Positions 60,441-60,849 of a stretch of 64,000 bases of DNA are shown piece by piece. The notes beneath the pieces are model-generated. The model made no database searches. It saw nothing but the letters and a program-made list of their open reading frames with translations, and was not told the DNA's origin. A program made the translations under genes and the position numbers. The stretch is from positions 12,574 to 76,573 of the forward strand of contig MHPJ01000004.1 of NCBI GenBank assembly GCA_001822065.1, written 5' to 3'. The number at the start of each line of letters is the position of its first letter. Position 1 is the first letter of the stretch. This stretch comes from Candidatus Staskawiczbacteria bacterium RIFOXYB1_FULL_37_44. GTDB taxonomy: Bacteria; Patescibacteriota; Minisyncoccia; Minisyncoccales; Staskawiczbacteraceae.

Positions 60441-60815
60441 AAAAAAGAGGGCGCTTCGAGTCGCGGAAAACTTCGGTCGGGTGACACGATTTTCCATACG
60501 AATGAAGCGCCCTTGGCGTATCCCCTCTCCCAGCCATTAACGGACTCACAGGATCCCAACGGGGAAAACGCCCCTGGGCGGAGAGCTGTCAGCGCGTGCC
60601 GAGGCAGGGTGCCATCGACATTCCGCGTCATAGTTACGCGGGGCTGGATGCTCTCAGCCGATTTGGCGCAGACGAATCGGCGCCAATATTTAGCGAAGGT
60701 CAGCTAACGATTCGGCTGTTATTCCTTCGCCTTTTCAAATTGGATCCAGCGGTTTTTGCGGACATGACGGAATTTCACCGCCCTTAAAATCAAAAACCTG
60801 CCAAATCCTTACTAT
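60441..60815 (-). ncRNA. Candidate ~370-nt structured RNA of unknown class (GC-rich)
   Basis: Minus-strand TTGACA-N17-TGcTAAGAT promoter; many GC-rich hairpins; closing AGGGCGCTTC...GAAGCGCCCT + T7 terminator; no ORF with an RBS. Confidence 0.45.
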
Positions 60816-60820
60816 ACTTA

Positions 60821-60849
60821 ATCTTAGCATAAAACAAAAGCCGTGTCAA
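60821..60849 (-). promoter_or_regulatory. Sigma70-type promoter (TTGACA-N17-TAAGAT with TGn)
   Basis: Reverse complement reads TTGACAcggcttttgttttatgcTAAGAT. Confidence 0.55.

Follow-up and report, generated by a model that had tools for sequence, protein, structure and literature searches.

The window, a 64-kb stretch of DNA (64,000 nucleotides) from the metagenome-assembled genome of a groundwater bacterium of the Candidatus Staskawiczbacteria, contains an SLT-like gene that converges on a gene for an RF1-like release factor. The two genes are separated by a spacer of 615 nucleotides (nt). In this spacer, on the strand of the SLT-like gene, lies a GC-rich unit (60441-60849, minus strand; the window unit) that does not resemble a protein-coding gene. 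With a probability of roughly one half, the window unit is a lineage-specific, independently transcribed gene for a structured non-coding RNA (ncRNA) of about 380 nt. This explanation is favoured because of the promoter-terminator anatomy of the unit, its lack of a coding signal, the orthology of its promoter with promoters of other species, and the structured sister RNAs that occupy the same site, hereafter the slot, in those species.

Anatomy of the window unit

The unit opens with a sigma-70-type promoter with an extended -10 element, which scores 10 of 12 consensus positions plus the TG and whose -35 box falls inside the loop of the terminator hairpin of the SLT-like gene (Table 1). Taken alone, a match of this type is not above chance, as 1.3 are expected in shuffled sequences and 1 was found. 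Other species, however, carry this promoter at the orthologous position. A GC-rich body of about 380 nt separates the promoter from a long terminal hairpin, which is presumed to be the intrinsic terminator of the unit. The terminator scan did not list this hairpin, for the sole reason that its interior, at 53 nt, is larger than the longest loop the scan allows. The unit is probably transcribed from the minus strand. Downstream on this strand, a REP repeat comes first, followed by the antisense of the release-factor gene.

The REP repeat, a palindromic REP/MITE-like element outside the RNA, fills the remainder of the spacer between the unit and the release-factor gene. It belongs to a family of palindromic intergenic repeats of about 110 nt, of which the 64 kb hold at least nine copies, placed between ordinary housekeeping genes; a weak copy is also present in locus L008. 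Because the copies occupy such positions, the possibility that they are the ends of a mobile element carrying the unit was rejected.

An orthologous promoter with variable cargos

The gene order L25, SLT-like gene, release factor, L31, S2, EF-Ts, with the SLT-like and release-factor genes convergent, is conserved. The SLT/release-factor pair is syntenic in about 125 loci, drawn from about 45 species genomes and about 80 metagenome contigs (the compared loci carry L numbers, and each genome is represented by the flanks of one locus). In most of these loci, the two stop codons overlap or lie 0-90 nt apart and share a single bidirectional terminator. In about one quarter, the spacer measures 250-1500 nt.

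Occupied slots have a recurring layout, in which a promoter just past the SLT terminator, on the SLT strand, is followed by a cargo and a strong terminator. Fifteen slot promoters, at the same place and on the same strand, fit TTGACA-N17-TAnnnT. GG at spacer positions 2-3 is found in 11 of the 15, compared with 7 of 40 other promoter-like sites in the same DNA, and the TG of the extended -10 element in 14 of the 15, compared with 13 of 40. The promoters are followed by an (A/U)AUAG leader, and a leader of the AUAUAG type is common to the slot units. Every one of these shared features (TTGACA-NGGNYTY-...-TRTGMTAnnnT, then the (A/U)AUAG leader) is present in the window promoter, the region of which is 73% identical to that of L016 over 52 nt. 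Judged by sequence, the window promoter is orthologous to the slot promoters of other species. The location of the unit is also that of a slot unit, between the convergent stop codons and on the SLT strand.

The cargos behind these promoters differ. Group A (L016=L108, L022a, L107, L137, L139) has a common 5' domain, group B (L030, L046, L037) has in common a GGGAGUUG domain plus a U-rich tail, and group C (L019=L128, L119/L120, L155) has a long terminal hairpin in common; the unit of L153 combines elements of groups A and B. The slots of L012, L124/L125 and L136 encode small domain-less proteins with clear Shine-Dalgarno sites. These slot proteins (L012, L124, L125/L130, L136) measure 80-124 amino acids (aa) and have no Pfam match; those of L124 and L125 are 52% identical, and the others are mutually unrelated. 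The RNA-type units of the other loci have no Rfam match and are mostly predicted to fold at z values of -5.2 to -10.7, the least structured, L046, reaching -3.5. Four folding controls gave z values of -0.3 to -2.9, and a GC-rich mRNA control gave -4.3.

In group A, a P1 stem of 24 bp is kept with compensatory changes at three pairs. A long-range helix, P2, differs in sequence from species to species, yet in every case the best partner of the 5' strand is the 3' strand of the same unit. This compensation implies that RNA structure is under selection at the locus in sister lineages. Group A is itself a candidate for a new RNA motif and is better suited to covariation analysis than the window unit. 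In all of its five units but L016, the P1 interior of which is different, the P1 stem surrounds a CUGUCUCAC...GCUAGUAUGGCAAGAGAAG core that is conserved, and P2 competes with P1 for GGACAG. Three of the units (L016, L022a, L139) continue with an (A)GUUCUUUUC tract. In L022, two promoter-RNA-terminator units stand in tandem (4799-6041, minus strand of the locus), separated by a duplicated release-factor 3' fragment of about 140 nt, which suggests segmental duplication at the slot.

Relatives and predicted fold

Beyond the promoter and leader, the terminal hairpin is the only part of the window unit with detectable relatives, namely the terminal hairpins of L019, L119 and L155. A covariance model built from these three without the window (R1) has its top match in the 64-kb window at 60439-60517, over its full length, with 31.2 bits and an E value of about 5e-9. 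Other terminators of the window score at most 19 bits, and the best forward-strand match outside the training set in 587 kb of related loci scores 21 bits. The stem of the window hairpin shows one compensatory change, from U-A to C-G, and the hairpin fits the pattern by which subgroup C is defined, GGGCGYUUC...GAARCGCCC followed by a run of U. These results suggest that the 3' module of the unit is homologous to the terminal hairpin of group C. The P1/P2 domain of group A with CUGUCUCAY, the GGGAGUUG domain and the GUUCUUUUC linker were all looked for in the window unit and not found, and Smith-Waterman comparison with shuffles matched it to slot units at the terminator only. As far as the sequences compared can tell, the body is confined to one species. 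The window unit is an outlier within the slot grouping and not a member of a known family.

For 150-nt stretches, the GC maximum of the whole window lies in the unit (0.64, compared with 0.38 overall). The minimum free energy predicted for the minus strand is -155.8 kcal/mol (z = -5.8), compared with z = -2.9 for the plus strand; an independent set of shuffles gave z = -5.0 and -3.2, respectively. The predicted fold comprises a 5' domain (P1), two hairpins (H2 and H3), a branched central domain that holds H4 and H5, a penultimate hairpin domain and the terminal hairpin. H2 contains CAGCCGAAUCG, a segment with alternative pairing partners. CAGCCGAATCG (60718-60708) can pair with either CGATTCGTCTG (60679-60669) or ATCGGCTG (60662-60655), and a GCUGGAU/AUCCAGC helix is a possible alternative to P1. 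Tandem repeats were not found in the unit.

The initial annotation, made by inspection of the letters, had already placed a promoter over the upstream terminator and a closing hairpin with a T-run at the other end, and it had listed GC helices and mutually exclusive pairings in between. All of these features are present at the positions it gave. Its description of a highly structured RNA unit stands as regards a self-contained minus-strand unit with an unusually stable prediction, and does not extend to the specific fold, which lacks comparative support.

Table 1. Features of the window unit, its neighbours and the REP/MITE-like repeat family in the window
Feature	Position	Strand	Details
SLT-like gene	60876-62423	-	Upstream of the window unit; ends in TAG
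RF1-like release-factor gene	59442-60260	+	Convergent neighbour; N-terminally short; PKT motif
Terminator hairpin of the SLT-like gene	60865-60831	-	AAAAGCCG / CGGCUUUU, then GUUUU; 14-nt loop; weak
Sigma-70-type promoter, extended -10	60849-60821	-	TTGACA 60849-60844, N17, TGcTAAGAT 60829-60821
Leader/start motif	60812-60820	-	UAAGUAUAG; consensus (A/U)AUAG
5' hairpin domain P1	60742-60808	-	Predicted fold
P1 apical hairpin	60782-60766	-	GGCGG-UGAAAUU-CCGUC
Hairpin H2	60731-60692	-	GGCGAAGG/CCTTCGCT helix (GGCGAAGG...CCUUCGCU); inner stem CAGC/GCUG
Hairpin H3	60686-60663	-	UUGGCGC-CGAUUCGUCU-GCGCCAA
Branched central domain	60577-60659	-	83 nt; closed by GGCUGAGAG/CUCUCCGCC; holds H4 and H5
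Hairpin H4	60641-60623	-	CCGCG-UAACUAUGA-CGCGG
Hairpin H5	60619-60598	-
Penultimate hairpin domain	60515-60573	-	GGGCGUUUUCCCC...GGGGAUACGCC; includes CAGGGG/CCCC
Long terminal hairpin	60513-60440	-	AGGGCGCTTC...GAAGCGCCCT; 10-bp GC stem around a 53-nt interior, then U7
REP/MITE-like copy	60268-60395		Remainder of the spacer
REP/MITE-like copy	57342-57447
REP/MITE-like copy	53208-53306
REP/MITE-like copy	45422-45497
REP/MITE-like copy	11639-11701
REP/MITE-like copy	10330-10380
REP/MITE-like copy	9427-9488
REP/MITE-like copy	7838-7934
REP/MITE-like copy	5115-5163

Three further observations concern these features. The RF1-like protein has only 272 aa and starts at about position 103 of the 347-361-residue RF1 models, without the usual N-terminal domain; this short form is found throughout the relatives. 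The P1 apical hairpin, as GGCGG-UGAAAUU-CCG(C/U)C, has 60 exact occurrences in IMG/VR viral contigs (L175-L234), compared with roughly a dozen expected by a rough estimate. Many of these are terminator-like hairpins ahead of T-runs, and the similarity does not extend beyond the hairpin. Lastly, a second ORF-less unit (ORF, open reading frame) at 22900-23312 on the minus strand, probably the "first unit" of the earlier reader, begins with a promoter at 23312-23284 (TTGACA-N17-GAGATGAT), and its terminator hairpin lies at about 22945-22900. It has no Rfam match at E<=1 and, unlike the window unit, folds no better than shuffles (z -0.3).

Alternative explanations

Several observations weigh against a functional ncRNA gene. 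In every one of the closest relatives, the two genes abut and the unit is absent: L087, L088 and L089 (release factor 86-87% identical), L091/L121 (SLT C-terminus 83% identical) and L095 (release factor 91% identical). The 615-nt spacer is therefore lineage-specific, and the RNA, being dispensable for the clade, does not belong to the conserved housekeeping RNAs. In 646 kb of orthologous loci, no match to the body (nt 84-245) was found with a covariance model. Searches with nhmmer and sensitive blastn against 86 and then about 170 syntenic loci found no match to the body either, the extra matches being only the promoter-region similarity to L016 and flanking REP copies. Translated-frame degenerate-seed scans of metagenome and viral contigs found nothing, and blastn of the unit against phages and plasmids found nothing relevant. 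All public copies of the spacer are identical (the start residue as annotated is all that sets a "99%" cluster member apart), and since the body also has no relatives, the window fold is without covariation support. A GC-rich coding mRNA of the same genome, used as a control, reaches z = -4.3, so that stability alone is weak evidence. The reverse-strand self matches of the R1 training hairpins score 23-26 bits, only about 5-8 bits below the window hairpin, and the homology of the 3' module is for this reason suggestive and not proven. Finally, the likeness of H4 to a tRNA anticodon arm, described below, was noticed post hoc, with a rough p of about 0.005 after allowing for the number of tRNA arms available for such a comparison.

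The main rival, a serious possibility even if not the preferred one, is a non-functional or selfish insert. The slot would then accumulate duplicated gene ends, REP elements and orphan GC-rich DNA, and the stable fold would be a by-product of GC-rich inverted repeats; any transcript would start at a promoter present by accident and have no effect. The patchy distribution, with the closest relatives lacking the unit, the restriction of the body to one species and the REP copy in the rest of the spacer all speak for it, as does the 5' segment of the unit, in which the end of the SLT gene is copied in inverted orientation: of the 15 positions in the 5' strand of P1 (60809-60795), 14 are complementary to the last SLT codons (60900-60886). 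Units of group A hold sense-like and antisense-like copies of the SLT gene end, and their complementarity to the cognate SLT end is not kept where codons have changed, which fits an origin by duplication. The duplicated release-factor 3' fragment between the two units of L022 points the same way. These findings are taken to mean that flanking gene ends are duplicated and inverted as the slot grows, and not to indicate a conserved antisense function; such a function against the SLT gene end was rejected because the complementarity is not maintained across species.

A paralogous arrangement in the 16S rRNA gene (52051-54524, minus strand) adds to the case for an insert. The length of this gene exceeds that of the model by about 1 kb, and its best clan match, the one kept, was the archaeal small-subunit rRNA model. 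An insertion at about 52600-53350 carries a plus-strand promoter (52626-52654) that is paralogous to the slot promoter; promoter and leader read TTGACA...TATGCTATAAT-TAAGTATAGG (52626-52663, plus strand; leader 52655-52663). A Shine-Dalgarno site and a GC-rich ORF of 121 aa (52704-53069) follow, then a terminator and a REP copy (53208-53306). The 121-aa ORF has no homologue outside the species and no Pfam match; it was considered as a marker of a mobile cassette and rejected, as it too is species-specific. Together with the slot of the window, the insertion implies that promoters of this kind precede orphan GC-rich cargos at two or more sites in the genome.

Other features argue against an insert without function. 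The genomes are streamlined and most relatives keep only 0-90 nt between the two genes, so a spacer of 615 nt stands out. Conservation of the promoter across lineages exceeds the two hexamers, sister units keep their helices by compensatory change, and a clean terminator is found in every unit. The window unit is also the most GC-rich stretch of the window and among its most stably folded.

An unlikely explanation is that the unit acts as an antisense RNA in cis or near-cis. Its segment 60809-60795 would pair with the last codons and stop region of the SLT mRNA (60900-60886), in trans or, if transcription reads through, within one transcript, and thus control the stability of the mRNA 3' end or the termination of translation. 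In another version, read-through of the unit would interfere with the convergent release-factor gene. By our own estimate, about 0.01 matches as good as the 14 of 15 complementary positions are expected by chance in the region. In a cross-species RNAduplex matrix, the unit with its own SLT end forms the strongest pair (-33.8 kcal/mol, z -2.5), and the SLT terminator is weak, with a 14-nt loop. However, the segment is predicted to be sequestered in P1, and its counterpart in sister species does not track changes in the cognate SLT end. The strong terminator at the end of the unit opposes read-through into the release-factor gene, and the pairing would explain only about 15 of the 380 nt.

Resemblance of H4 to a tRNA anticodon arm

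The 9-nt loop of H4, UAACUAUGA, is identical to the anticodon loop of a tRNA encoded at 51807-51882 on the minus strand, next to the 16S rRNA gene and 9 kb away from the unit, and these are the only two sites of the 9-mer in the window. The anticodon arm of this tRNA reads CUGCA-UAACUAUGA-UGCAG. It agrees with H4 at 15 of 19 positions, and the four differences amount to two compensatory stem pairs. The tRNA is abnormal; it scores 54.7 bits with Rfam, with a two-base insertion in the loop, and ARAGORN calls it Pyl/CUA. TAG serves as a stop at a conserved position in the SLT-like gene. An exact scan of viral contigs for H4 gave no matches.

Mimicry of tRNA anticodon arms occurs in regulatory RNAs, for example in the thrS operator of Escherichia coli. 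H4 is like these mimics in that a 5-bp stem carries a 9-nt loop identical to that of the tRNA. It differs in that the window unit is not located in the leader of a synthetase or modification-enzyme gene, and the likeness was seen once, post hoc, in a single species. As one concrete hypothesis, H4 may be an anticodon-arm mimic that could bind or titrate a protein recognising the anticodon arm of this tRNA.

A more elaborate explanation makes the slot a dedicated RNA cassette site, in which a conserved promoter between a core translation gene and a core cell-wall gene would express interchangeable, fast-diversifying structured RNAs and occasionally small proteins as an accessory function, with the window version as a decoy of the tRNA anticodon arm. 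H4 could then titrate or divert a factor that targets the tRNA, for instance a synthetase, an enzyme that modifies the tRNA, or an anticodon nuclease encoded by a phage or toxin. This combination is regarded as decidedly unlikely.

Coding potential

It is very unlikely that the unit is a coding cassette or a decayed one, with, for example, a 21-aa ORF (MSAKTAGSNLKRRRNNSRIVS, from 60765) or a 67-aa sense ORF (60631-60428) as the coding part, or as a pseudogene of a small orphan protein like those of the slot in L012, L124, L125 and L136. In its favour, the same kind of promoter and leader drives proteins in L124, L125, L136 and L012 as well as the 121-aa ORF of the 16S insertion, the spacing between the promoter and the first ATG resembles that of the 16S-insertion cassette, and gene callers annotate a 144-aa ORF on the opposite, plus strand. 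Unlike the coding cassettes, however, the unit has no convincing Shine-Dalgarno site, no sense ORF longer than 67 aa was found, and all six frames are broken. A search of 5.8 billion proteins with the 144-aa ORF retrieved nothing but the ORF itself, which extends across the REP repeat on the strand opposite to the promoter-terminator pair. For the 67-aa ORF, HMMER applied exhaustively to 1.84 billion representatives returned only three matches, all of low complexity, and neither ORF has a Pfam match. By tblastn, the unit shows no similarity to the small proteins found in the slot elsewhere, and a pseudogene of these proteins was therefore rejected. No ORF of the window unit combines a start signal with homologues or a domain.

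Comparison with known RNA families

At the gathering threshold, Rfam 15 recognises only the 16S rRNA and three tRNAs in the whole window. With the cutoff relaxed to E<=10, the region 60200-60950 gives on both strands only a chance miRNA-like match over the promoter. The families that failed to match the unit include RNase P, tmRNA, 6S, SRP, cobalamin, T-box and the group I/II introns, as well as OLE, ROOL, GOLLD, HEARO and raiA. ARAGORN finds no tRNA or tmRNA at the unit and no gene in the intergenic region with introns of 0-600 nt allowed, and the GGUUCRANUCC motif is absent from the unit. An intron-containing tRNA, a conceivable candidate given that tRNAs of Patescibacteria can be hidden behind group I introns (PMC13011429), was rejected on the ARAGORN result. 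A diversity-generating retroelement, a retron and a CRISPR or TIGR-like array were likewise rejected, as there are no tandem or template-like repeats and no reverse transcriptase or Cas neighbours.

The initial annotation had dismissed the ORFs of the unit as artefacts and had seen no RNase P, tmRNA, cobalamin riboswitch or T-box in it. Both judgements are borne out, the first by the lack of homologues and Pfam matches and the second by Rfam 15, including the E<=10 search. An Rfam cmscan including OLE, GOLLD, ROOL, HEARO and raiA, as it had suggested, matched no family, and the structured RNAs found in the orthologous slot of other Staskawiczbacteria support its RNA reading.

The unit shares the string GGUGAAAUUCC with cobalamin riboswitches (RF00174 and variants), and differs from them in having no B12 box, no match to the multi-helix junction, no match at E<=10 and no downstream gene. 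In the window unit, GGUGAAAUUCC is the loop of a simple small hairpin that recurs as a terminator-like hairpin in many viral contigs. It is extremely unlikely that the unit belongs, in strongly diverged form, to a known family (RNase P, tmRNA, cobalamin, 6S, SRP, a group I intron or intron-containing tRNA, or OLE, ROOL, GOLLD, HEARO or raiA) missed by the models in a genome of the Candidate Phyla Radiation (CPR): RNAs of these bacteria are often atypical, as with the 16S rRNA gene here, tRNAs of Patescibacteria may hide behind group I introns and the GGUGAAAUUCC string is present in the unit, but neither Rfam at E<=10 on either strand nor ARAGORN matches the unit, the sister units have no match, an essential housekeeping RNA at this site could not be missing from the closest relatives, as the unit is, there is no downstream gene for a riboswitch to act on, and the string is a plain hairpin loop common in viral contigs.

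Orphan structured ncRNAs have been discovered as long GC-rich intergenic regions (GC-IGR) in AT-rich genomes with the GC-IGR/DIMPL approach (PMC8632094, PMC8723152). The window unit resembles such RNAs (raiA, OLE, ROOL and GOLLD; PMC8632094, PMC8723152) in being a stand-alone gene with its own promoter and terminator, an excess of GC, many stacked hairpins, no ORF and no adjacent regulated gene. It differs in that they have a core supported by covariation in many species, whereas its body is found in one species. The Rfam models of these classes do not match it, and what the related slot RNAs have in common is limited to the promoter, the leader and, in a subgroup, the terminal hairpin.

A looser comparison is with the CsrB/RsmZ type. 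The window unit shows no enrichment of the repeated GGA motif, with 7 occurrences compared with about 7 expected, so that a CsrB-like GGA enrichment was rejected. Small RNAs of this type have a variable number of hairpin modules, a variable length and a fast sequence turnover, and their genes are independent and have strong terminators. By analogy only, their trans-acting, protein-titrating mode is a plausible model for the window RNA. Besides the GGA count, the differences are that no CsrA context is evident and that the hairpins of the window unit are long GC stems and not short GGA loops.

Proposed mode of action and significance

If the window unit is a structured RNA gene, an RNA of about 380 nt would be transcribed from the extended -10 promoter at 60849-60821 on the minus strand and would end at the long hairpin with its U7 tail at 60513-60440. 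The orthologous promoter in this hypervariable slot would drive rapidly diverging or exchanged cargos, most of them modular structured RNAs. Because no gene lies downstream on the strand of the unit, the RNA most likely acts in trans. It would do so as a folded RNA, for example as a scaffold or decoy for protein binding.

Bacteria of the CPR have tiny, gene-dense genomes and, to our knowledge, almost no described regulatory RNAs. The slot offers several candidates for new RNA motifs, of which group A is the best for covariation; the window RNA, having no relatives, is the least tractable member. The anticodon-arm look-alike, together with the position beside a release-factor gene, provides a concrete and testable hypothesis. 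Even if the unit were only junk, it would still be an example from a streamlined genome of duplicated gene ends giving rise to newly transcribed sequence. Accessory genes would be evolving in an unusual way at a locus that keeps an orthologous promoter while species exchange or reshape the cargo behind it.

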